Shown: one piece after another, positions 29,127 to 51,064 of the stretch
Numbering within the stretch: the first letter of the stretch is position 1
Layout: the number at the start of each line of letters is the position of its first letter
Assembly (NCBI GenBank): GCA_021819135.1
Contig: JAKASE010000001.1
Location: forward strand, 75,375 to 139,374
Length of the DNA: 64,000 bases
Direction of reading: 5' to 3'
From: Thermoplasmata archaeon
GTDB lineage: Archaea > Thermoplasmatota > Thermoplasmata > Lutacidiplasmatales > UBA184
Notes under the pieces: model-generated
What the model saw: the letters and a program-made list of their open reading frames with translations, nothing else
Databases searched by the model: none
What the model was told of the DNA's origin: nothing
Made by a program: the position numbers and the translations under genes

Positions 29127-29763
29127 AGGGCTCGACGGCGCTCACCAGCAGCCGGCGCCGGGCGTGCCGGGGCGACTCGAGCTCGTCGGCGACCGCCACC
29201 GCGAGATCGGCCAGCGAGAGGGTCCGCGCGGGCGGACCTCCCCCGTGCGGGTCGATGCCCGTGTGGTAGCCGCCGGTACGCTTTCCGTCCGCCACGGGTC
29301 CCTCCGGACAGACGTAGGTCCAATCGACCTCCTGCTCCTCCCGAAGGAGATCGAACGTCGACCGGGCGGGGGCGCCCGGGGCCTCGGCGGCGCGCTCCGG
29401 GACGGCCTCGCCCCCCGTGCTCCGCTTCGCCGGGGCCCAGCCCCTCTCCTCGACCACGAGCACGCGGGGCCCGCGGGCCTCGCGCAACCCCTCGAGGAGC
29501 GTGGAGGTCGCCGCATTGAGGTCCGTACCTCGCCCCCGTCCGGGTCGGCCGATCGCCGAAACGGCCGCGTCGTGCCCCGGCAGGACCGCGGAGACGGTCG
29601 CCCGATCCCGTAGGTCGCCGCGGACGAACCGGACCGGTGAGCCCGGAGGGGCGGCGGAGACCGGGCGGCGGACGACCCCGGTCACCCGGTGACCCCGACG
29701 TACCAGCTCCTCGGTCACTCGGGCTCCGACCCGGCTCCCGGCGTCAAAGACGATGACCCTCAT
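29092..29763 (-). CDS. NAD(P)-binding NmrA/SDR-like oxidoreductase
   Basis: MRVIVFDAGSRVG Rossmann N-terminus; 223 aa from ATG 29763. Confidence 0.6.
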   Translation of the reverse strand: MRVIVFDAGSRVGARVTEELVRRGHRVTGVVRRPVSAAPPGSPVRFVRGDLRDRATVSAVLPGHDAAVSAIGRPGRGRGTDLNAATSTLLEGLREARGPRVLVVEERGWAPAKRSTGGEAVPERAAEAPGAPARSTFDLLREEQEVDWTYVCPEGPVADGKRTGGYHTGIDPHGGGPPARTLSLADLAVAVADELESPRHARRRLLVSAVEPSTGSSRDRAPR

Positions 29764-29891
29764 CGTGCCGAACTGGCCAGTTCCGGTACGCCCGCCTGGC
29801 ATATGAACCCAAAGTCGGGGCGCCGCCGCCGCGGGCGGCGAGGCGCGGCGAAACCGAACCGGGACGCGGTCGGAGGGGGAAGCGCGCTACG

Positions 29892-30563
29892 GTGCGCCCC
29901 CGAGGGGCCGCGGGTGCTCCGTGCCCGTCAATTCGCCTCGACCTTGGGTTCATCGTGCCCGTACGCGTCGGCGGAACCGGTTTCGACCGACCGAGGAGGA
30001 CCGGGTGCCAGGGGGCGTCGAGCACGACAGGCACAAGACGCCACTACCGAAGCAAGGTCGAGGTCCTGCGTGACCTCCTCGAGGCGTCCCGGGTGGACCA
30101 CGGTAAGACCCACATCATCGGTCGGGCCTTCCTCAACGAGGACCTCTTCGAGCGGTACGCTTCCTTGGCCCTCTCCGAGGGTCTCCTAGAGGCCGTCGAG
30201 GGGGGATACCGGGTCACTCCTTCCGGTATCACGTGGCTGGAGGCAGTCCGCCGCGTGCTCGAGAAGCGTACCGCGCTCGCTTCCGCGCTCAGTGAGCTGG
30301 CCCGGATCTCGGACCGTTCACCGGCCCCGAGGACGTGGGACGCCCCGCCGGTGGAGCGCAGCGCGTCAAGCCTCTCCGCCGAAGAACACCCGCCGGCGCT
30401 CGATTCGGTGATCGAGGAGCTCGGCCTCCCCGGCACCCGTTCCCCGCCCTCCCCTCGGGGCGAGGGCGCCGGCGGAGCGTCGGCATCCTCCCGGGTCCGA
30501 GTCGATCTCGCGCGAGGCGTGTCGCCCCGGCGCCGGCCGCCGAGGCGAAGGAGCCGTCCGTGA
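29892..30563 (+). CDS. HTH_45-type winged-helix protein with disordered C-terminal tail (start uncertain: ATG 29892 or GTG 29955)
   Basis: RHYRSKVEVLRDLLEASRVDHGKTHIIGRAFLNEDLFERYASLALSEGLLE matches archaeal HTH_45 (RSKIEIL.DIL...); translationally coupled (GTGA) to downstream membrane/peptidase gene. Confidence 0.55.
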   Translation: MRPRGAAGAPCPSIRLDLGFIVPVRVGGTGFDRPRRTGCQGASSTTGTRRHYRSKVEVLRDLLEASRVDHGKTHIIGRAFLNEDLFERYASLALSEGLLEAVEGGYRVTPSGITWLEAVRRVLEKRTALASALSELARISDRSPAPRTWDAPPVERSASSLSAEEHPPALDSVIEELGLPGTRSPPSPRGEGAGGASASSRVRVDLARGVSPRRRPPRRRSRP

Positions 30564-31894
30564 TCTCACCTACGGGAGTCCGCGGCGTACGTCCCTGGCT
30601 TCTCTTCGCTGCCGTGCTCGCGGTCGGGCAGTCGGTCTACTTCGCGACCCCCACGCTCACTCCCGAGGTCGCCCGAGCGGTCAGTCTCGCCGTCCCGCTC
30701 AGCGCGCTCGCGCTCTTCTTCCTGTTCGTCCGGTGGGACGGGAGTACGCCGCGCGACCACGGGCTCTTCCTGCCCCCCGACCCGGCCCGGGCCCTCGGCG
30801 TCGCCGCGCTGCTGGTCGGGGTCTACCTCATCGCCGTCCTCGAACCCGGGTTCGGCTTCGGGTTCCTGGCGGGGGCCGAGGACACCGTGGACAGCGTCCT
30901 CTACTGGATCGCGTACGCTCCGCTCACCGCCCTGGCCGGCGAGGCGGTCTTCCGAGGGTATCTGCTCGATCGCTGGCTCAAGCCGGGCACCCTACCGGCG
31001 TCGCTCGGGGTCTCCTCGGTGCTCTTCGCGGTCGCCGGGACGAACGTGGTCGTCCTCGAAGGGCTCGAGCCGGTCTCGTTGGGACGACTGCTGCTCAGCC
31101 GCGTTGCCCCGCTCGTCGTCCTCGGCGTCGTGCTCGGCTTCTACTACCTCTGCGCCGCGAGGAACCTGCTCGGGCCGTTCGTCCTCCGTACCGGGATCCT
31201 CCTCTTCGTGGGACTCTCGCCGCTCCTCGCCGGCTCGCCCGGCTGGCAGCTCTCCCTGCTCCTCGAGCTGTTCGCCTACGGTCTCGTCCTCGCGCTCCTG
31301 CTCGTCCTGTACCGACCGTCGCGCTTCCTCGCCCGCGCCTATCTCGGGGAGAGGTTCGGTCCCCGCCGGGGACGGTTCCGGGAGATCCGGGAGCGTCGGA
31401 GAGAGCGTCGGTCCCTGGTCGTCGCGAGCGTGGCCGTCGCGCTCGTGCTGTCGGGGACGTTCGTCACCCTCGTGACGACCCTCGGGACCAATCCCCCGTT
31501 CCTCGCCATCTCGAGCGATAGCATGAGCCCGACGATCCACCGGGGGGACATCGTTCTCGTCCGGCAGGCCGACGCCGCGTCGATCGGCGTCGGAACGGTG
31601 ATCGCCTACTCCTCCTCCTGCATGCCCTCCCCGGTAGTACATCGTGTCGTGGCCGAGAGCCCGGGAACCGGCGGCCCAGTGTACACGACGAGGGGGGATG
31701 CGAACGGGGTGAACGATCCGTGTCCCGTGCCGATCGGCGCCGTCATCGGGCAGATCGTTCTGGTCGTTCCCCTCCTCGGTTTCTTCGCCCTCTCGCCGGC
31801 GTTGTCGGTCGGAACGGTGGTGATCGCGGTCGTCGCCGTCGCCCTGCTCCGGCCCTCGTCGTCGTCGTTCTCCCATCGGAGGTGGCATCGATGA
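30560..31894 (+). CDS. fusion protein: polytopic membrane domain (degenerate CPBP/Abi-like EAVFRG motif) + C-terminal type I signal peptidase (SipW/Sec11, S26B type)
   Basis: ~8 TM helices then TM anchor and SDSMSPTIHRGD (Ser box), VVHRVV (His box), TRGDANGVND (GDNN box). Confidence 0.75.
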   Translation: MISPTGVRGVRPWLLFAAVLAVGQSVYFATPTLTPEVARAVSLAVPLSALALFFLFVRWDGSTPRDHGLFLPPDPARALGVAALLVGVYLIAVLEPGFGFGFLAGAEDTVDSVLYWIAYAPLTALAGEAVFRGYLLDRWLKPGTLPASLGVSSVLFAVAGTNVVVLEGLEPVSLGRLLLSRVAPLVVLGVVLGFYYLCAARNLLGPFVLRTGILLFVGLSPLLAGSPGWQLSLLLELFAYGLVLALLLVLYRPSRFLARAYLGERFGPRRGRFREIRERRRERRSLVVASVAVALVLSGTFVTLVTTLGTNPPFLAISSDSMSPTIHRGDIVLVRQADAASIGVGTVIAYSSSCMPSPVVHRVVAESPGTGGPVYTTRGDANGVNDPCPVPIGAVIGQIVLVVPLLGFFALSPALSVGTVVIAVVAVALLRPSSSSFSHRRWHR

Positions 31895-33189
31895 AAGGTC
31901 CGATCGCAGGGGTGGCGGTGCTGATCGTGCTGGCCGCGTGCGCCGGGTACTGGATCGCGTACGACGAGTCCCACGCCTCCCAGACCCCGGTCTCCACCAC
32001 GTTCCAGTACGAGGAGACGGGGGTCTACTCGTACGTGGCCGAGCTGAAGAACAACTCGCTCTACGGACCGGTCAACCTGACGAACCCCAACGCGACCCTC
32101 TTCTACGGGATCACCTCGTGGCTTCACGTCACGTACGTCTACCACATCACGCTCGACCGGGTCGTGAACACGACCGTGAACGCCGAGGTGCCGGTGGTCC
32201 TGGAGAGCTCGGTCTGGTCGAAACCGCTCGGGGCACAGAACGCGACGTTCGCGGCGACCGGCGCGAGAGGGGCGACCCTCGCGGTCACCTACGACCTCAA
32301 CGTGACGTCGGTCGTCTCCTTGGTCTCGTCGATCGTGAACGACACCGGCTACCAGCCGGATGCCTTCGCCGTCCGGTTCAGCCCGACGGTGACGACCTCC
32401 GTGGACACGGGGGGCACGGTGGCTCCGGTAGAGTTCGCCTCCACGCTCGCGTTGAACTTCACCTCCCAGCAGATCGTGCCGAGCGCGCTCCTTTCCTCCG
32501 CTCGGGGGGCCCACACGATCCTTGGAAGCCCGACCGGCGGAGTGCCGGGGATCTGGGGGAACGCCTACCTTCCGATCGGGATCCTGGTCGCGAGCCTCGG
32601 GGCCGCCGGCTATCTCGGGCTCCGTCCGTCCGGCGGATCCGATCGCCACCCCCGATCCCGTCTCGAAGCCGACCTGCGGGCCTACCGGGACGAGATCGCG
32701 GAAACCGATACTCCCCCGCCGCGCCAGCCGTCGGTCGAGGTCCGGTCGTGGGCCGACCTGGTGAAAGTGGCCGACACCCTCGGGCGGCCGATCCTACGGC
32801 TGGCCGACGCGACCGGCGGGGCACGGGAGGGATCGGTCTTCTACGTCCTCGCGGATTCCGTGGCCTACGTCTACCGGATCGAGGAAGCGGACCGGCCCGG
32901 GGAACCGACCGGACTCCGGGGCCCATCTCGCGACGCCCCCGGTCCGGCGGGATCCGTCGACATCCGGGCCGCCGTCGGCGAAGGGGACCGATCGCTCGGA
33001 CGGTTCGTTCGGGAAGTGAGCGACGTCAGCGAACGCCTGCGGACGAGCGGGGTCGGGGGCGAGCCTCGGAGAGAGGTGGACGCGCTCCTCCTTCGCGCGA
33101 TCGCTCGGGCCCGGCAAGGGCATCTGGACAGCGCGGAGCGGCTCCTTCGCGAAGCGGCCGAGCGAGCGGGTCGGACCGACCTCCGATAG
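31891..33189 (+). CDS. membrane-anchored N-glycosylated protein with SipW-cognate-like signal peptide (TapA-like accessory/fibre subunit candidate)
   Basis: ATG overlaps upstream stop (ATGA); N-terminal GVAVLIVLAACAGYWIAYDE resembles GGTWAAFND-type SipW-cognate signal; >10 sequons; second TM near residue 250 and cytoplasmic tail. Confidence 0.6.
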   Translation: MKGPIAGVAVLIVLAACAGYWIAYDESHASQTPVSTTFQYEETGVYSYVAELKNNSLYGPVNLTNPNATLFYGITSWLHVTYVYHITLDRVVNTTVNAEVPVVLESSVWSKPLGAQNATFAATGARGATLAVTYDLNVTSVVSLVSSIVNDTGYQPDAFAVRFSPTVTTSVDTGGTVAPVEFASTLALNFTSQQIVPSALLSSARGAHTILGSPTGGVPGIWGNAYLPIGILVASLGAAGYLGLRPSGGSDRHPRSRLEADLRAYRDEIAETDTPPPRQPSVEVRSWADLVKVADTLGRPILRLADATGGAREGSVFYVLADSVAYVYRIEEADRPGEPTGLRGPSRDAPGPAGSVDIRAAVGEGDRSLGRFVREVSDVSERLRTSGVGGEPRREVDALLLRAIARARQGHLDSAERLLREAAERAGRTDLR

Positions 33190-33336
33190 CTCCGGGGCGG
33201 AGCCCGGGGCCCCGACGCGGTGCCCGGATCATAGGATTCCCGGGTTTGCTCTGGAGCAGTGGGCTCGGACCTTCGCAGTCGGCTTGCCATCGCCCGCCCA
33301 TGCCCGGTACGAGGTGAAAGGCCTCAGGCTGAGAAA

Positions 33337-33876
33337 ATGTCGGGCAAGTGGGTTGTGGGACTGGTCGGAGTGTTCGTCGTGCTGGGCGTCGCGGGGGTCG
33401 GATTCGCGGCCTTCACGGACCCGTTGACCATCAATGGGAGCGCCACGGCAGGTACCTTGGACGTGCATATCGTGGACTACAGCAACAACGTCGCCTACCC
33501 GGGACACACGTACCTCACGCATCTCAGCGGTGACAAGAAGTCGATCGACCTCTATGCGTGGAACCTGGTTCCGGGCCAGTACCCGAACGAGCAGGTGAAG
33601 CTGAAGAACGTCGGCACGCTCCCGGCGCACATCGCCGTCACGCTCGTCAACAGCGACGGGAACCTCGTGGCCATGGGCGGCGCCGATGCCTTCGATGTCC
33701 AGACCACCTCGGGGCTCACCGCGGTGGGAGGTGTCTGGAGCGTCACACACTGGGTGACCCTCTACCCGGGCCACTCGATCTGGGACACGATCTACGTCGG
33801 GATCCCGGCGGGATCGACGTCCGCACCGGCGAGCACGACCTTCACGATCGTGTACACCGCGACCGCGGGCACCTGA
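33337..33876 (+). CDS. TasA/camelysin-like (peptidase M73 fold) secreted protein with SipW-cognate class signal peptide
   Basis: Signal VVGLVGVFVVLGVAGVGFAAFTD (G-x-G-F-A-A-F-T-D); GTLDVHIV...NLVPGQYPNEQVKLKNVGTLPAHIAVTLV parallels TasA GTLDL...NLKPGD...F.NNGSL. Confidence 0.7.
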   Translation: MSGKWVVGLVGVFVVLGVAGVGFAAFTDPLTINGSATAGTLDVHIVDYSNNVAYPGHTYLTHLSGDKKSIDLYAWNLVPGQYPNEQVKLKNVGTLPAHIAVTLVNSDGNLVAMGGADAFDVQTTSGLTAVGGVWSVTHWVTLYPGHSIWDTIYVGIPAGSTSAPASTTFTIVYTATAGT

Positions 33877-34208
33877 GCACCGAGAGACGCCTGCGAGTCG
33901 CAGCGCCGGTCGAAACCCTTTCCGGGCGGGCCGGTGGGGACCCCCACTCCCACCGACCCGCCTCCCGTATCCTTCGCGGTCTCTCCGAAGGGCAGGACTT
34001 TTCCCCCGAGACCCCACCGGATCGTGCGCTCCTGGAGCGCCGCCGGACCTCCGTACCGGTCGGCGGCCGAAGGGCCCGGGGGGTAGCGGCGGATCCCGAC
34101 CCGCTCCGCGGAAGATCCAGGACCGGGCTCTCGACACATGCCTCCGGAGGCCGACCCACTTCTCCGTACGCTCCGAGCCCGTTCGGGCCGTCCGGACGTC
34201 GAAGCGAC

Positions 34209-35018
34209 CTAGGCCGGCAGCCCGCCGTCGATCGGTACCCCGGTCCCGAACATCCCGATCGCCGATCCGAGGGCGACGAGCCAGGACAGCGGCGGGAGAT
34301 GGAGGCTACCGGGCCAGACCTCGGGGAACCGCTTCCGCTTGTCGCCCGAGCGTCCGACCGGTGCCCGCGCCGCCCCCGCATCATGGGACAATGGCCGGTG
34401 AGCAGAGCGCGAGAGGGACCCGGCAGCGAATGTCGGTGCCGACGCGTAGGCGGAGCCCGACGGAATGCTCGGGATCGGCGCCCGTGACGCGGTAGGAGGA
34501 AGACGGACCCTTGCGCCCTCGACCAAGGCGCCCGCGGGTTCTGGCGGGGCCTTCAAAGCGACGACCCACCGATGCCACCGCCCTTCCGCGGACCGGCCTT
34601 CGGCATCCCGGACGGAGAGCGCGGTCAGATCCTCCACGGCGGTGGCGAGCTCCGTTCGACGCTGGATCACGAGGTTCGCCGCGTTGAGCCAATCCTTGCC
34701 CCGGTCCGTAGCGCGGAACCCTATCGCGGTCCGCCGGAGCAGGCCCTGTTGCAGGGCCACTCCGGAGTAGCGAGAGAACGAGTCTTCGTTGAGGTTGGCC
34801 CGCCCGATGAGGCGGCCTTTCCGCATCTCCGACACCGCGGCGGCCACGAGGTCTCGGAGAACCTCGACCTTCGTTCGATACCGCCGACTACCGGTGCTCG
34901 TGGTCGTCCCCCCTCGGCCCGGGGCAAGCGTTCTCCCGGCGCCGGTGAAGGGCGCACGCGCTCCGATAAACGCATAGTGGCACGGAATTGACCTACCGGC
35001 CCGGTTCGCGCGCCTCAC
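34209..35018 (-). CDS. HTH_45-type winged-helix protein paralogue with C-terminal extension ending in a hydrophobic segment (start uncertain: GTG 35018 or ATG 35210)
   Basis: RRYRTKVEVLRDLVAAAVSEMRKGRLIGRANLNEDSFSRYSGVALQQGLL paralogous to 29892-30563 including the conserved TT.TG.RR.YR pre-helix segment. Confidence 0.5.
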   Translation of the reverse strand: MRRANRAGRSIPCHYAFIGARAPFTGAGRTLAPGRGGTTTSTGSRRYRTKVEVLRDLVAAAVSEMRKGRLIGRANLNEDSFSRYSGVALQQGLLRRTAIGFRATDRGKDWLNAANLVIQRRTELATAVEDLTALSVRDAEGRSAEGRWHRWVVALKAPPEPAGALVEGARVRLPPTASRAPIPSIPSGSAYASAPTFAAGSLSRSAHRPLSHDAGAARAPVGRSGDKRKRFPEVWPGSLHLPPLSWLVALGSAIGMFGTGVPIDGGLPA

Positions 35019-35382
35019 GACCGGCGGCGAAGGGTTGGGGCTCGCAAACCCCGTTCGACATGTAGGTCCCGCGCTCTTCCCACTCCCGAGCTCGAGCCGA
35101 TAAGGGCGACCGGGTCGGTCCTCTCTCGGGCGCGCAGAGGGACTTCCTCTGGCGACCGGCTCGGTGGTGTGCCCCTTGACCCGCGAGTTCCAGCAAGGGT
35201 CGGAGGCCATTCCACCGGGACCAAGGCCGGACTCGGGGCTCGGCAGGGCATTCGTCTGAGTTGGCTCGAACGAGGCGTGGGATCACCCTCTCGACCGGCG
35301 GGTCCGAAGAGGGAGCTGCGGCCGTCCTCGAGTGGGCGGGTAGCCCAAACTTATGAAGAACGGGGCATCCGCCCAGACGGTT

Positions 35383-35455
35383 GCCACTGTAGCTCAGTCG
35401 GCAGAGCGGCTGATTCGTAATCAGCAGGTCGGGGGTTCAAGTCCCTCCAGTGGCT
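35383..35455 (+). tRNA. tRNA-Thr (CGU)
   Basis: 73-nt cloverleaf: acceptor GCCACTG/CAGTGGC, D-arm GCTCAGTCGGCAGAGC, anticodon loop TTCGTAA, T-arm GGGGGTTCAAGTCCCTC; TATA-like CTTATGA ~30 nt upstream. Confidence 0.85.
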
Positions 35456-35499
35456 TTGGTCCAAGGGTTCATATCCGTTGACAGCCCTCCCTCGAAGCG

Positions 35500-36742
35500 A
35501 TGGGTCAATCCCCGGTCGAACCGGCCGCCGACAATCGCCGGTTCGACATCCACGACACGCACGCCCAGATCGCCCACGCGGAGGCCCGACTGCGCTCAGG
35601 GGACTCGGGGGTCCCACCCGAGACCGCTCAGGCGATCCTCGAGTTCGTTGAGGCTCGTAGAGAAGCCGTCTCCGCGCAGAGGACGGTGACCTACCTTCGC
35701 GAATCTCCAGGCGGCCTCGAAGAGACTCGGCCGGGACCTTCTGGAACCGAACCGGGAGACGCCCGCGAAGTTCCTGCGGGCCTACCGCGAGAAGGAGGTC
35801 TGGACCAAGCTCACTGTGCGCTCCGTCCTCTACTCATTCTGGAAGTGGCGGTTCAATCGTGATGGGAAGGACTTCCCCCGCTGGCTCAAGATACCGCTCT
35901 CTGCGCGAGGGGCGAGCCGGAAAGACCACAACGATGTGTTGACCCCGGAGGAGGTCGCACGCATCGCCGATCACACAGTCAACCTCCGCGACAAGGCTCT
36001 GATCTGGGTCCTCTACGAGAGCGGAGGACGGATCGGCGAGGTGCTGACCCTGCGAATCGGCGACGTGGAGAGAACCGAATACGGGGCGGTCCGCCTCTAC
36101 TTTCCGACGGGAAAGACCGGTCGACGAACTGTCCCCCTCTTTGAAGCCGCGGTGCCGAACCTTCTCCTCTGGCTCAAGAACCATCCCCGAGCCAGCGACA
36201 GGGACGCTCCCCTCTGGGTCCAGATCGAGCAGGCGAACCCGAGCGGAAGTGGAATCGGCTACCGCTACGTCGTCAAGTTGCTCGAGCGAGCGGCGGCCCG
36301 CGCCGGCGTGGCGAAGCCGGTGAATCCGCACAGCTTCCGGCATTCCCGAGCCACGGCTGTGGCACAGAATCCCCAAGTCTCGACCTCGGTGCTCGAGAAG
36401 TTCTTCGGTTGGCAGCCGGGTTCGTCGATGGCGAAGACGTACGTTCACCTGTCGGGCAAGGAAGTCGAGGACGCCCTTGCCCGAGCCCACGGGATCGACC
36501 TCGGCAGATCGGAAACTCCGATGTCGAAGCTCCCGCGTGTGTGCGCCCGCTGCTCTACCTCAAACGACCCTGACGGGAAGTTCTGCGTCCAGTGCGGTGG
36601 TCCGCTCAGTCTTGAAGGCGTGGAGGAGCGGGCGAAGTGGAAGGCCGAGGAAGATGCGCTTGCCAACCTTCTTGACGACCCGAAGGTCCGCTCATTCATC
36701 GCGCGCCGGCTGAGGGTACATCTCGGCCGTGCAGAGGCGTAA
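35500..36742 (+). CDS. tyrosine recombinase/integrase, apparent +1 frameshift near 35690-35700 (N-terminal domain in frame of 35500, catalytic domain in frame of 35816)
   Basis: Catalytic boxes GGRIGEV (Arg), HSFRHSRAT (His-x-x-Arg), KTYVHL (Tyr); C-terminal zinc ribbon CARC...CVQCG; frame-2 reading open from 35690 encodes genuine-looking FLRAYREKEVWTKL segment lacking any start codon. Confidence 0.75.
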
Positions 36743-47008: not shown

Positions 47009-50000
47009 GTGCGCTGTTCAGGTAGCAAGTCGTCTTTCATTCCCAACCTCTATCTCCAGAACCTCTCCGCCGACCGGCTGTTCACCTGGTACGTTACCCT
47101 GAAGGCGACCTACGACGAGACCGATTACTGGATCATCCACAACGCGTGCACGACCCGGGAGGGTGTGACAAACCTGGGGAACAACGTCGTCCAGGGTCCC
47201 GCGTCGGTCTCGATGAGCGGGGGATCCGAGGACTCGACGACCTTGACCACTTCGGCCCAGGTGATCGAGAAGGGTACCAGCGATGTCGAGCTTCAGTGGA
47301 ATAACTCCATGATGGCGGATGGCCAAGGGGTCATCAGCCCGTCCATGGGCGGTAGTGGCCTCTCCGGGTTCGTCTACCAGGCGTCCTGGAACGACACTCA
47401 CACGTTCAGCAGTGGTGTGGCCTACGAAGCCGCCGTGAACACTTCGAGCTATCCGGGAGGTTGGAACAGCTCCTGGAAGCCGTCGATGTCCGCCGCCGAG
47501 CAGACCTCGTCACCGGTGCAGGCCACGAACTCCGTGTGTCAGTTCGTGTATCAGACCAACACGCTCAGCCTCCATGGACTCGTGGGGGTCGGAGGACCGA
47601 ACGACACCGCGACGGTGACTTGGTGGGCGAACGGCTTCGGGGTGGGCGTGCTCGAATACTCGGAGGTCGGCACGTCGTGGAGCCAGACCGTGACGTCGGT
47701 CGTAACGACCGATTCCAATGGGACTGACAAGTACACGGCGACCGTCCACGGCCTGCCCGGTACCGCGTTCTACTCCCTAACGGCCACGACGACGGTGGCC
47801 GCCGGGGGATGCCTCAGTCTCTCGAACGCGATCTCGTCCACGGCGTTCTTCGGACAAGGGTTCACGCTGACGCCGTTCGCGTACGCCTACGATTCGATCA
47901 CGCAGCAAGGTGGCGGTGAGGGGATCTACGCATACCTGTCGCCCCAGTTGTATACCCTCTACACGCAAAGCACGGTAAGTTCGACCGGAGGCTACCTGGA
48001 CTACGGACCGGCCAACGACGCGGGGCCGAACATCACCATCCCCATCTCGTCGCTATCTTCCATCACCTGTGGAGGGAACTGCTTCCTGGTGAACATCACG
48101 CCTACGAGTCCGAACCTGAACTATGTGGTCCAGGAGACGCTCAACTTCTCATGGGACGGCGGATCGTACTCCATGCACAGTGCTCCGACGACCTTCAACT
48201 ACCTCTGGGACACATCGGGGGATGGCCTGACGGATGCGGAGAAGGTCCGCGGCTGGAACGTGACCTACCAGGACCTTGCGGGCACCTACCACACCCGCCA
48301 CGTCACGGCCGAACCCAGCGCCTTTGCGACCAATGGACTCGTGGGAGACTACGTGGAGAAGGAGTTCGGGCTCGACCCGGGCACGGTCGACACGGCAGGC
48401 AGCCACATGCTCGATACATGGAACCTAACGTTCAATCTCCAGCCGGCAGGCGGGAGTCTACCTACCGGCTCGGACCTCCGAGTCTGGTACGAGAACTCGA
48501 CCTACGAGCCGTTCGCGGCAGGTCTTCAGTATTCCCACGGGCTCTATGAGACGGGCAATCCACCGGCCAGCGAGCGGAACGCGACCAACATCTCCGCCAC
48601 GGGAGGCGTCAACATCGGGGACGGGAGCCCATGGGCATCGACTGCGCTCTTCAGCTACCCCGCGCTCGAGACATTCGTCGGTCTGTCCGGTGTCCAGAAC
48701 GCGGGCTGGCTGCGGGCCGTCGAGGGGAGCTGGCAGGGGATCCCGACCCTCACGGTCGAAGGGAAGCTCTCTTGGGGGGCGGATCCCCTGGCCGCATCCA
48801 CCCCGAACGACGGGGTTTCGGACGGGGCGCGGGTCAACCCGCTCTACGATGTCGGTCTCGAGTTCCATTCCGTCTATGCGAACCTGACCGGGCTCGGGTC
48901 GGGCAACGATGGCAATGGCTACGCGGTCGAGATGGTCGAGGGCTACACCGATGATGGCGGGAACTGGCGATACATCAACAACTACTCCACGCCAGCGGTA
49001 TACGGCAACAGCAGCTCCCACCATGGAGACGTCACCGACTACACCACCACGTTGCCGGTGGGTCAAACCCAGCCGACCCAGACGATCTCGCTCGAGGTGG
49101 CGGAGAACATCACTCCGGGCCAGGGGCCCCAGCCGGCCTATATCAACGGGAGCGGTACCGGAATCTCCGAAACGTACGACCTCGTCCGAGGAGGCAATTT
49201 AGTCGTGAATGTCGTCGGCTGGTCCGGGCACGGCGGCTACTCCACGCTCTACGGGGTGTTCACGGAGGTGCCGATGGGAACCAAGGCGCCGACGTGGCTC
49301 TGGGTCCCCACGGACAACTCGACCGTCAACGGTCTCCCGATCGGCCTCCAGCGATACACCGGCGAGCAGTCGTTCGACCTCGTGGTCGTGAACGTCTCCT
49401 CCTCGGCCCTCTCCTCCGACCCGATCCCGCTCCCGTGGGGCGGGACGACACCGACCGGGATCCCGCTCTCGGCCGGCCTGAACGACTTCCTGGTCCCGCG
49501 GGAGCAGTTCCTCTACTCTCCCTTCGGCCAGGCGATCTTCCTCGGGAAGAGCACGAGCTTCAATGCCTCCCAAGCCCTGCCGTTCAACGGCTCGATCGAG
49601 TGGGGCGACATATCGGGGTTCGGCAGTCCGAACCCGATGGTCGACCTCGGCGCCTACTGGCAGAACCGGGCCATCGCCTCCGGACCGGGGAACATCACCG
49701 GGTATAACGAGACCGGTACCGCCGCGGGCACCACGGATGCCATCTCGGTGATGGTCGGTCCGTCCGCCACCACTGCCAACACCGGCGGCCTCCCCTCGAA
49801 CCCGAGCCTCTACTCGACCGTCGGCGATCCCTCGGCCCTGCAGTCCATCGTCACCCTCAACATCACCAGCCCGGACACGCTGGACCTCCTCCTCGCCGCC
49901 CTGCTCGATAACACCACGGGCGGATCCAACGCGGTGAACGGTACCCTCGAGTCCGTCACCTACCAGATCGGGTTCCTCGGACTGAACCCGACCGTACTCA

Positions 50001-51064
50001 ACGCGATCCCGAACGGGACAGAGCCGAACGACGGGCTCTACGGACAACCGAGCAGCACCTGGCCGCCGAACCCGCCGAGCAGCCTCTGGGGCTCCTTCTG
50101 GAACGCGGTCACGAGCTTTGTGGTCAACCCGCTCGGCACGGTCCTGTCGCTCGTCAACACCGTGTGGGACGCCGCTACGGCCGCGTTCACGTACCTGAAC
50201 CACCTCGCGCACGAAGCGGTCGCGATCGGGGCGGAGGTCGTGGCGCGGACCGCAGCCGCGATCGTGCAGGCGGGGAGGGAGATCGCGAACGCGTTCGAGG
50301 TGTTCTTGAACTGGCTCTACACGCTCGTCAAGGACGCACTTGCGGTGGTTATCGACCCGATACTTAACGCGGCCCAGAGTTTCGACAGCACTCTAGCGAC
50401 TCGGGCCAACGTGACTGTGAGCGACCAAGGCTCACTCGGTTACGTGACCCCCGCTGATGGGCTAACTTGGGCACGGGCATTCGACCCAGTAGCCTACCTT
50501 GGGTTTGCATTCGCAGTCGGTATCACCATCGTAATCGGGATTGTTACAGCCGTCACTCTAGGAGCAGGGTTCGTTGTCGGGGTGATCTTGTCCCTCATTC
50601 CCACGCTCGCGCAAGAGCTAATCCATGGACTGGCGACAGTGACGTCACTCACTTCGAGCGCGGTGACAACTCTCGAAGATAGCTTCTCCAACTCGGTCTC
50701 GCAGACTGACTGGGAAGCTTTGGCAGGTGCCGTATCGATCGGGGCGTCGAGCTTCGACTTCTTCTTTGCGTTGGCGACAGCGGCGATGAAGGGACTCACC
50801 AACACCATCGCAGGTACCCTCGCCCTCTCCATCATCGTTGACCTCGTCGTCTTTGTGGTGAGCATCGTGAACTGGGCGAGTCATCTCGCAGACATCGCCA
50901 TCGCCGCCCTCTTGCTGGCGGGCGCCGGAACGTATGTCGCGTTCAGAGCACTGGGTGCGAGCGCGAGCATTCCGGAATTGAAGACTTACGCCACCGTCTC
51001 CGTCATCTTGGCTGGAGTGGGACTTGCTGCTGCCGGGGCCGATGTCCATCTGGCGGAGTCGTGA
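47009..51064 (+). CDS. giant (1351 aa) N-glycosylation-sequon-rich surface protein with C-terminal multi-TM domain; no recognisable signal peptide
   Basis: >70 N-x-S/T sequons, S/T/G-rich beta-like sequence, 6-8 hydrophobic helices in last 300 aa; GTG start 12 nt after IS1634 end. Confidence 0.6.
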   Translation: MRCSGSKSSFIPNLYLQNLSADRLFTWYVTLKATYDETDYWIIHNACTTREGVTNLGNNVVQGPASVSMSGGSEDSTTLTTSAQVIEKGTSDVELQWNNSMMADGQGVISPSMGGSGLSGFVYQASWNDTHTFSSGVAYEAAVNTSSYPGGWNSSWKPSMSAAEQTSSPVQATNSVCQFVYQTNTLSLHGLVGVGGPNDTATVTWWANGFGVGVLEYSEVGTSWSQTVTSVVTTDSNGTDKYTATVHGLPGTAFYSLTATTTVAAGGCLSLSNAISSTAFFGQGFTLTPFAYAYDSITQQGGGEGIYAYLSPQLYTLYTQSTVSSTGGYLDYGPANDAGPNITIPISSLSSITCGGNCFLVNITPTSPNLNYVVQETLNFSWDGGSYSMHSAPTTFNYLWDTSGDGLTDAEKVRGWNVTYQDLAGTYHTRHVTAEPSAFATNGLVGDYVEKEFGLDPGTVDTAGSHMLDTWNLTFNLQPAGGSLPTGSDLRVWYENSTYEPFAAGLQYSHGLYETGNPPASERNATNISATGGVNIGDGSPWASTALFSYPALETFVGLSGVQNAGWLRAVEGSWQGIPTLTVEGKLSWGADPLAASTPNDGVSDGARVNPLYDVGLEFHSVYANLTGLGSGNDGNGYAVEMVEGYTDDGGNWRYINNYSTPAVYGNSSSHHGDVTDYTTTLPVGQTQPTQTISLEVAENITPGQGPQPAYINGSGTGISETYDLVRGGNLVVNVVGWSGHGGYSTLYGVFTEVPMGTKAPTWLWVPTDNSTVNGLPIGLQRYTGEQSFDLVVVNVSSSALSSDPIPLPWGGTTPTGIPLSAGLNDFLVPREQFLYSPFGQAIFLGKSTSFNASQALPFNGSIEWGDISGFGSPNPMVDLGAYWQNRAIASGPGNITGYNETGTAAGTTDAISVMVGPSATTANTGGLPSNPSLYSTVGDPSALQSIVTLNITSPDTLDLLLAALLDNTTGGSNAVNGTLESVTYQIGFLGLNPTVLNAIPNGTEPNDGLYGQPSSTWPPNPPSSLWGSFWNAVTSFVVNPLGTVLSLVNTVWDAATAAFTYLNHLAHEAVAIGAEVVARTAAAIVQAGREIANAFEVFLNWLYTLVKDALAVVIDPILNAAQSFDSTLATRANVTVSDQGSLGYVTPADGLTWARAFDPVAYLGFAFAVGITIVIGIVTAVTLGAGFVVGVILSLIPTLAQELIHGLATVTSLTSSAVTTLEDSFSNSVSQTDWEALAGAVSIGASSFDFFFALATAAMKGLTNTIAGTLALSIIVDLVVFVVSIVNWASHLADIAIAALLLAGAGTYVAFRALGASASIPELKTYATVSVILAGVGLAAAGADVHLAES

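Follow-up and report, generated by a model that had tools for sequence, protein, structure and literature searches.

A gene cluster at positions 29892-35018 of the stretch of DNA analyzed here (hereafter the window: 64,000 nucleotides of contig JAKASE010000001.1, from the Thermoplasmata archaeon assembly GCA_021819135.1) encodes a putative secreted fiber subunit together with a signal peptidase, a membrane protein, and two HTH_45 proteins. It raises the question of whether uncultured Thermoplasmata possess an extracellular fiber system of the TasA kind, and whether such a system would be new. An initial annotation, made from the sequence alone, had read the cluster as an undescribed filament or matrix system mirroring the bacterial tapA-sipW-tasA operon. 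The comparisons described below suggest that it is probably the Thermoplasmata version of an archaeal TasA-superfamily fiber locus, closest to the AbpX clade. The cluster is not a new system, because loci that combine a peptidase, a DUF5305 protein, a regulator, and a donor-strand subunit have been published, both for Tafi (PMC11821415; PMC12337348) and for AbpX (bioRxiv 10.64898/2026.01.04.697558); it belongs to a kind already described in other archaea in 2025-2026. What is new here is the apparent loss of catalytic residues from a CPBP-like domain fused to the peptidase, a palindrome and hairpin upstream of the fiber gene, a minimal locus with one subunit gene, and a far less acidic subunit.

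The evidence for a fiber locus begins with the forward-strand open reading frame (ORF) at 33337-33876, which encodes a precursor of 179 amino acids. Its first 24 residues (33337-33408; MSGKWVVGLVG...) form a predicted Sec-type signal peptide without twin arginines, and predicted cleavage between GFA and AFTD would leave a mature protein of 155 amino acids with the N-terminus A-F-T-D; mature TasA begins with AFND. A predicted donor strand (approximately residues 25-42) precedes the beta-sandwich core. In AbpX, the donor-strand signature consists of an aromatic side chain in position 2 and an acidic one in position 4 (bioRxiv 10.64898/2026.01.04.697558), a pattern with which the window's A-F-T-D agrees at the level of sequence. 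Phe occupies mature position 2 in 41 of 43 relatives, and an acidic residue is found at position 4 in seven of the 43, all from the window's own sub-clade, where it is Asp.

Close relatives of the subunit are few (11 in a search of 5.8 billion proteins), and a profile search of 1.84 billion cluster representatives returned 1082 matches at E ≤ 0.001. When the PDB sequences were searched, a profile of 11 sequences matched AbpX of Pyrodictium abyssi (PDB 9sj2, 9rhp) at E = 1.5e-4, and a profile of 52 sequences matched AbpX at E = 1.3e-8 and TasA (5of1, 8aur) at E = 0.004; the nanobodies that these searches also listed match over short framework segments, and their matches are meaningless. AbpX is the best sequence match of the window subunit among solved proteins, and the alignment begins at AbpX W2, facing the conserved Phe of the family. 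An AlphaFold2 (AF2) model of the subunit (predicted local distance difference test score, pLDDT, 79.8) is an all-beta sandwich in which residues 20-33, leading from the signal-peptide helix to the core, are disordered; in a modeled monomer, such an unstructured N-terminal segment is what a donor strand would be expected to give. Fold comparison scores were 6.0 for the Sulfolobus thread, 5.6 for CanX, 5.6 for the DUF1102 tube protein, and 5.5 for the TasA fiber, and unrelated Ig-like sandwiches score alike. The fold evidence is consistent with a fiber subunit but not discriminating, and the sequence profile is therefore the stronger argument. The earlier description of the small protein as TasA-like is borne out by its sequence profile and by its fold likeness to TasA-superfamily subunits, and its N-terminal 18 residues, disordered in the modeled monomer and aligned with the donor strand of AbpX, suggest indirectly that it may polymerize through N-terminal donor-strand complementation.

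It is conceivable, if improbable, that this protein is a secreted or surface-attached beta-sandwich that does not polymerize and only needs a dedicated peptidase; it might then be an adhesin, for example, or part of the envelope, or an enzyme of the camelysin type. The fold matches are generic for Ig-like sandwiches, the locus holds a single subunit gene and no anchor, and the nearest Pfam family carries the name 'camelysin metallo-endopeptidase', all of which would suit such a role. However, of the solved structures, the one that matches best in sequence is a proven fiber subunit, the donor-strand signature is conserved, and relatives carry 2-6 tandem paralogs, as do systems with major and minor filament subunits. 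Nor does the subunit alignment contain an invariant His, Glu, or Cys from which an active site might be built, and the specific possibility of a camelysin-type metalloprotease is rejected for that reason. The match to Peptidase_M73 is itself weak (E = 0.016), as it is in seven of 52 relatives, and the match to TIGR04088, the SipW-cognate signal peptide model, falls under its cut-off (17.5 bits against 19). Two further features of the family may be recorded here: most relatives have four Cys, suggesting two disulfides, while the window's sub-clade has zero and keeps Asp at mature position 4; and an N-G-S/T sequon is conserved among the relatives within the predicted donor strand.

Two genes upstream of the subunit, the forward-strand ORF at 30560-31894 encodes a fusion protein of 444 amino acids. 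It matches the NCBIfam model for archaeal signal peptidase I (TIGR02228; 86.6 bits, cut-off 51.85) and, at approximately 30893-31189, the Pfam Rce1-like family (PF02517; 32.8 bits, cut-off 22.4), with an N-terminal CPBP/Rce1-like polytopic domain followed by a linker helix, an S26 domain (approximately 31424-31837), and a C-terminal helix. The S26 peptidase predicted earlier is thus recovered above a curated cut-off. Residues S321, H361, D380, N382, and D386 of the S26 domain are kept in 100% of 33 distinct fusion proteins, and by this sequence pattern the peptidase is of the Ser/His type, as are archaeal, endoplasmic reticulum (ER), and SipW peptidases. The AF2 model of the fusion (pLDDT 74.9) contains approximately 10 helices, and its top four Foldseek matches are MmRce1 of Methanococcus (4cad, two chains), SpdC (6u0o_A), and human SEC11A (7p2p_A), with E-values of only about 2e-3 to 5e-3 but a probability of 1.0. 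The N-terminal domain has the eight-helix CPBP fold, superposing on 4cad and 6u0o with target TM-scores of 0.62-0.64, and the catalytic domain shares 25% identity with SEC11A; a phmmer search of PDB sequences with the N-terminal domain returned nothing.

The gene that follows (31891-33189, forward strand) encodes a membrane protein matching Pfam DUF5305 (35.4 bits, cut-off 29). Hydropathy indicates a signal-anchor helix, an ectodomain of approximately 200 amino acids, a second helix, and a cytoplasmic domain of approximately 190 (188) amino acids. This layout fits the published topology of DUF5305 proteins, in which an outer beta-sandwich is accompanied by two helices and by a domain in the cytoplasm (bioRxiv 10.64898/2026.01.04.697558), insofar as sequence can indicate it. 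The ectodomain contains eight N-X-S/T sequons, compared with 2.7 ± 1.4 in shuffled sequences (P ~ 0.001); all 12 Asn of the protein fall within a 200-residue stretch, with zero in the 188-residue C-terminal part, and relatives show a similar division, the ectodomain carrying 5-11 sequons and the cytoplasmic part 0-1. The membrane segments and the sequon enrichment sustain its previous description as a large N-glycosylated membrane protein. Its identity is that of DUF5305, the family proposed as an accessory subunit of the peptidase (TafG-like), and it is not a counterpart of TapA.

The association of these genes extends well beyond the window. In a scan of one genome per species, full-length fusion peptidases were recovered at 33 loci, exclusively in metagenome-assembled genomes (MAGs) titled Thermoplasmata or Thermoplasmatales archaeon, and identical (100%) copies of the window subunit and peptidase occur in GCA_027377435.1. 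Every relative lies in a Thermoplasmata MAG, in agreement with the Thermoplasmatota-like origin first suggested for this DNA. Gene orders were established by running the profiles on all six-frame ORFs of the loci (designated by L numbers). Approximately 23 of 32 Thermoplasmata loci have the order HTH_45, peptidase, DUF5305, and then one to four fiber paralogs, and eight loci (L022, L028, L029, L033-L036, L038) have fiber genes, peptidase, and DUF5305 with no HTH_45 gene; at L013:482-5094, four to six fiber-gene matches lie upstream of the regulator. The peptidase adjoins DUF5305 in nearly all of the 32 loci, with fiber paralogs beside them. A single fiber gene is found in the window and in its nearest relative, L004, and no further copy occurs elsewhere in the 64-kilobase (kb) window.

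This synteny bears directly on a second alternative, namely that the peptidase and DUF5305 form a general signal peptidase complex whose linkage to the subunit gene is incidental. In its favor, TIGR02228 is the general model for signal peptidase I of archaea, and a proposal exists that DUF5305 is a general accessory subunit of the peptidase, resembling the eukaryotic complex. This alternative is nonetheless unlikely: fiber paralogs adjoin in essentially all 32 species-level loci, and do so in two gene orders; the CPBP-like fusion is confined to these loci; and the published precedent is of a dedicated peptidase, deletion of tafD having abolished both Tafi and the processing of its subunits (PMC11821415). 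A dedicated peptidase serving a fiber subunit is therefore the reading adopted below.

Other prokaryotes offer several related arrangements. A many-helix signal peptidase adjoins a DUF5305 gene in a Bacilli MAG (L043:5314-7871) and in a MAG labelled Bacteroidaceae (L055:5308-7549), and the extra helices of these two peptidases match neither Pfam Rce1 nor a profile of the fusion's N-terminal domain. A Dehalococcoidaceae MAG (L049:2-6068) combines a short peptidase with four fiber-like genes and a DUF5305 gene. Stop-to-stop ORFs join an S26 signal peptidase to a sortase domain in a Lachnospiraceae MAG (L066:6016-7311) and to an LPXTG anchor motif in Microbacterium (L085:5716-7056); these could be fusions, or adjacent genes in read-through. 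A large protein search with the fusion-protein profile brought back the same Thermoplasmata proteins only, and did not extend the CPBP-like domain to ten-helix peptidases in other lineages.

The N-terminal domain of the fusion is unusual in what it appears to have lost. Catalytic CPBP/Rce1 proteins carry the motifs EExxxR, FxxxH, and HxxxN. Among the 33 fusion proteins, the first motif takes the form G/Q-E-x-x-F-R-G where it has not been lost, as it has in some members; Gly/Ser/Leu and Arg stand in place of motifs 2 and 3; and no His is conserved, with at most 30% His in any column. By these sequences, the domain is CPBP-like without the catalytic residues of the family. The CPBP protein SpdC of Staphylococcus aureus has no catalytic activity and serves to place the enzyme SagB at the membrane. 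Because of the likeness to this inactive, partner-positioning protein, the N-terminal domain is read as probably a membrane scaffold that is itself non-catalytic and supports the peptidase fused to it. The alternative of an active intramembrane protease, with either the subunit or the cleaved signal peptide as the target of a second processing step, would accord with the Pfam Rce1-like match above cut-off, the superposition on MmRce1, and the one Glu and the Arg of motif 1 retained in many members, but it has little probability given the lack of a conserved His, the replacement of the motif-1 Glu in several members, the Gly/Ser/Leu and Arg at motifs 2 and 3, and a structural match of equal quality to the inactive scaffold SpdC.

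Expression of the fiber gene appears to be organized separately from that of the genes before it. The initial annotation had described four translationally coupled genes; coupling is apparent for the first three, through four-base overlaps of regulator and peptidase (GTGA, 30560-30563) and of peptidase and DUF5305 (ATGA, 31891-31894). The fiber gene is not translationally coupled, because a 147-base gap separates it from the DUF5305 gene. It has its own promoter region, whose palindrome and hairpin are conserved in relatives. With the relatives aligned by the fiber start codon, the region upstream of the first fiber gene consists of a palindrome, the motifs GGACGAA and CCTTC, and a TATA box approximately 50 nucleotides (nt) before the start. 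The palindrome has a 7-6-7 form (TACGATT-N6-AATGGTA) and lies 95-108 nt upstream of the fiber start and approximately 45 nt upstream of the TATA box; it occurs at this fixed distance in at least 20 Thermoplasmata loci (L006-L040; for example, L026:8481-8500), and at four loci left out when the matrix was built (L016, L019, L021, L039) it is comparably placed upstream of a fiber gene.

In the window, the corresponding element at 33232-33251 (forward strand; TAGGATT-CCCGGG-TTTGCTC) is imperfect and lies 105 nt before the fiber ATG. Its score is weak, two unrelated window positions scoring slightly higher, and it was therefore assigned from its spacing and its alignment to relatives such as L006. 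A position upstream of the TATA box is the usual location for an archaeal activator, and from its sequence and placement the palindrome is an obvious candidate operator for the co-inherited HTH_45 regulator, which we infer would bind it.

The second conserved element is a hairpin in the fiber leader. At 14 of 27 loci, a hairpin with five or more Watson-Crick pairs has its end 8-17 nt ahead of the fiber start, compared with 1.1 ± 1.1 in dinucleotide shuffles (maximum 6 in 1000) and 0-2 at other offsets. In the relatives (L006-L039) they have 5-7 base pairs and often a GNRA loop. All five pairs covary among 14 relatives; the 100% pairing in this alignment arises by construction, because it is anchored on the hairpin. 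The window counterpart, a predicted hairpin of the 5' untranslated region (5'-UTR) at 33311-33325 on the forward strand (GAGGT-GAAAG-GCCTC), ends 11 nt before the fiber start codon.

The regulator at the head of the cluster (29892-30563, forward strand) is a winged-helix protein matching Pfam HTH_45 (34.5 bits, cut-off 25.5). It also matches Sso10a_fam at 40.5 bits, under the cut-off of that model, and Sso10a itself (1r7j) matches only weakly (E = 0.003). On the reverse strand at the far end of the cluster, the ORF at 34209-35210 scores 23.9 bits against HTH_45, just short of the cut-off; the two HTH_45 proteins share 48% identity across 91 amino acids (E = 2e-24), and by sequence the downstream gene is a clear paralog of the upstream one. 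The start of the convergent gene may be the GTG at 35018, the nearest in-frame candidate upstream of the domain (giving 34209-35018), and the longest ORF begins at 35210. Start-codon analysis of the upstream regulator gives GTG 29892 or GTG 29955, with the conserved domain from approximately 30042. The cluster had been described as having paired regulators, and a second HTH_45 gene does stand here; among the loci compared, however, this convergent arrangement is peculiar to this organism's contigs, and the downstream paralog is absent from the others. Locus L039 has two HTH_45 copies that are co-directional.

Several observations concern the leaders of the HTH_45 genes. In relatives (L006-L062), a clear TATA box (GTTATAC) lies approximately 100 nt upstream of the gene's conserved YR(S/T)K codon, and the gene has a GC-rich leader with hairpins, in which some pairs carry compensatory or G-U changes. 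One clade of relatives has a palindrome, GGGACCGGGTCCC, upstream of the HTH_45 gene. The two leaders in the window (29925-30040 and 34900-35030) are degenerate (GTTCATCG, GTTTATCG) and have no start codon near the domain, for which reason the true starts of both genes are uncertain; the regulator of L004 has no canonical in-frame start at all. Autoregulation of HTH_45 through the fiber palindrome was considered and rejected, there being no consistent site upstream of the regulator gene.

These elements can be assembled into a proposed mechanism, built on what is observed here: the identities of the domains, the conserved catalytic residues, the similarity in fold, the synteny, and the conserved non-coding elements. 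The 179-residue precursor would be exported through the Sec pathway, and the dedicated Ser/His peptidase, whose gene lies two genes upstream, would cut off its signal peptide after Gly-Phe-Ala24. In this the peptidase would have the glycosylated DUF5305 protein as its accessory partner, and it would be held on a CPBP-like domain of eight helices that appears to have lost its protease residues and is a probable membrane scaffold. The mature 155-residue subunit (Ala-Phe-Thr-Asp) would then polymerize outside the cell, its N-terminal strand inserted into the next subunit, to give fibers or a matrix, and the HTH_45 protein at the cluster head probably controls the separate fiber promoter through the upstream palindrome. 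Cleavage by this peptidase, like polymerization and regulator binding, is proposed by extension from these observations. A dedicated enzyme may suit such a substrate: according to published work on TasA, its Phe at P2' makes for poor cleavage by a bacterial-type (LepB) signal peptidase (PMC10269814).

More tentatively, and with greater doubt, one could see in the inactive CPBP-like domain, the fused peptidase, and the glycosylated DUF5305 protein a prokaryotic multi-part signal peptidase machine for fiber subunits with an aromatic residue after the cleavage site, its pseudo-protease serving as an SpdC-like platform and perhaps as the site where assembly starts, and the whole expressed through a circuit of HTH_45 regulator, 20-bp palindrome, and 5'-UTR hairpin. 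Such a circuit of HTH_45, palindrome upstream of the TATA box, and covarying hairpin is not described in the fiber literature compared here.

Comparison with known systems places the locus within a growing group. The TasA homolog AbpA was described by Wang et al. (2022; PMC9245690), with TasA-like proteins in several archaeal lineages including Methanomassiliicoccales and Thermoplasmatota. In the abpX loci, DUF5305 and a signal peptidase of ten helices are accompanied by minor and tip subunits and, occasionally, by transcription factors (bioRxiv 10.64898/2026.01.04.697558, January 2026). The window shares with them a transcription factor, a DUF5305 gene, and a dedicated signal peptidase I with many helices (TIGR02228); of the features of the AbpX clade, it has the aromatic and acidic donor-strand residues and the peptidase of approximately ten helices with DUF5305, and it does not have the low isoelectric point (pI) or acidity. 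The Thermoplasmata lineage lies outside the AbpX survey, and the window locus differs from those surveyed in its single subunit, with no tip or minor subunit. In the AbpX paper, the peptidase's extra helices are not described as CPBP-like, and the strings CPBP, Rce1, and Thermoplasm are absent from the text of the preprint.

The system of the haloarchaeal Tat-fimbriae (Tafi; tafA-G) follows the same logic, with a regulator (TafB), a dedicated signal peptidase (TafD), the DUF5305 protein TafG, and donor-strand pilins, and Tafi-like clusters are found in Thermococcus, Pyrococcus, and Archaeoglobus (PMC11821415; PMC12337348). The differences are in the parts: Tafi subunits have Tat signal peptides, whereas the window subunit has a Sec-type peptide; TafD, a protein of four helices, carries an outer domain at its C-terminus, in contrast to the N-terminal CPBP-like domain of the window peptidase; and TafB is a membrane Lrp/AsnC-like protein, unlike the HTH_45 regulator.

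With the tapA-sipW-tasA operon of Bacillus subtilis, the locus shares a secreted beta-sandwich subunit with an A-F-x-D mature N-terminus, a dedicated peptidase of the Ser/His (ER/archaeal) type in the operon, and, for the window as a proposal, donor-strand assembly. The resemblance first drawn to that operon accordingly holds for the types of peptidase and subunit and fails for TapA: no cluster protein gives a TapA-like match, and the subunit does not match the TasA equivalog model NF046066. Similarly, the peptidase had been called SipW-type; it is an archaeal Ser/His signal peptidase in a fusion, and it scores 34.1 bits against the Bacillus SipW equivalog NF046067, for which the cut-off is 190. 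Beyond the Bacillus operon, the window locus has a DUF5305 partner, the CPBP-like fusion, and an archaeal regulator.

The window's N-terminal domain has its eight-helix CPBP fold in common with SpdC/LyrA (6u0o) and MmRce1 (4cad), but where the partner of SpdC is a glucosaminidase, here it is a signal peptidase within the same polypeptide. The eukaryotic signal peptidase complex (SEC11A with SPCS1-3; 7p2p) aligns in its catalytic domain, and the window's scaffold is instead the CPBP-like domain. The accessory subunit SPCS3 is glycosylated and has a beta-sandwich on the luminal side; DUF5305 resembles it by description, homology not being claimed.

Several points weigh against a fiber locus of this kind. 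The Thermoplasmata family is known from genes alone, and a Foldseek search of the PDB with the subunit gave no match below E = 1e-3. The subunit gene of the window stands alone, with neither a minor nor a tip or anchor subunit at the locus, in which most relatives differ. The mature subunit, which has no Cys, has a pI of 5.17 with 6.5% Asp and Glu, compared with a pI of approximately 4 and approximately 15% acidic residues in AbpX (the family median for Asp and Glu is 5.6%), and with so few acidic residues, calcium-triggered assembly is doubtful. Finally, the right half-site of the window palindrome and the TATA box (GGCTTGCC) are degenerate, and the start codon of the upstream regulator is ambiguous (29892 or 29955).

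The cluster leaves the current picture of the field unchanged. It extends the TasA/AbpX/Tafi fiber type to uncultured Thermoplasmata, mostly of soil and sediment, and indicates a locus design (regulator, dedicated peptidase, DUF5305, subunits) that is stable over approximately 30 species. The CPBP pseudo-protease, the fixed-distance palindrome, and the leader hairpin could guide work on the processing and regulation of archaeal matrix fibers, and, having one subunit gene and zero Cys, the window locus is a simple candidate for reconstitution.

All five ORFs initially placed in the cluster are present. The GC content of the window is approximately 70%, and that of the cluster, at 68-70%, equals that of its upstream flank, in keeping with the native composition noted earlier. 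An inverted repeat of high GC content, its 14-nt arms 93% complementary and its loop 10 nt long, lies at 33925-33962 (forward strand), 50 nt past the fiber stop and between the convergent genes; from its sequence, it may be a 3' end or stabilizing hairpin. A search of 29500-35600 with Rfam found no known RNA family except a tRNA.

After that tRNA-Thr (CGT; 35383-35455) comes a zinc-ribbon tyrosine recombinase (35816-36742), beyond which approximately 20 kb of lower GC content (58-65%) extends to approximately 56000. The interval 35383-56000 is probably an integrated mobile element, whose far border is undefined because the 3' end of the tRNA-Thr, when searched for elsewhere, gave no second copy. 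The low-GC region encodes mostly proteins without Pfam matches, among them that of an ORF of 1351 amino acids (47009-51064), and two DDE transposases.

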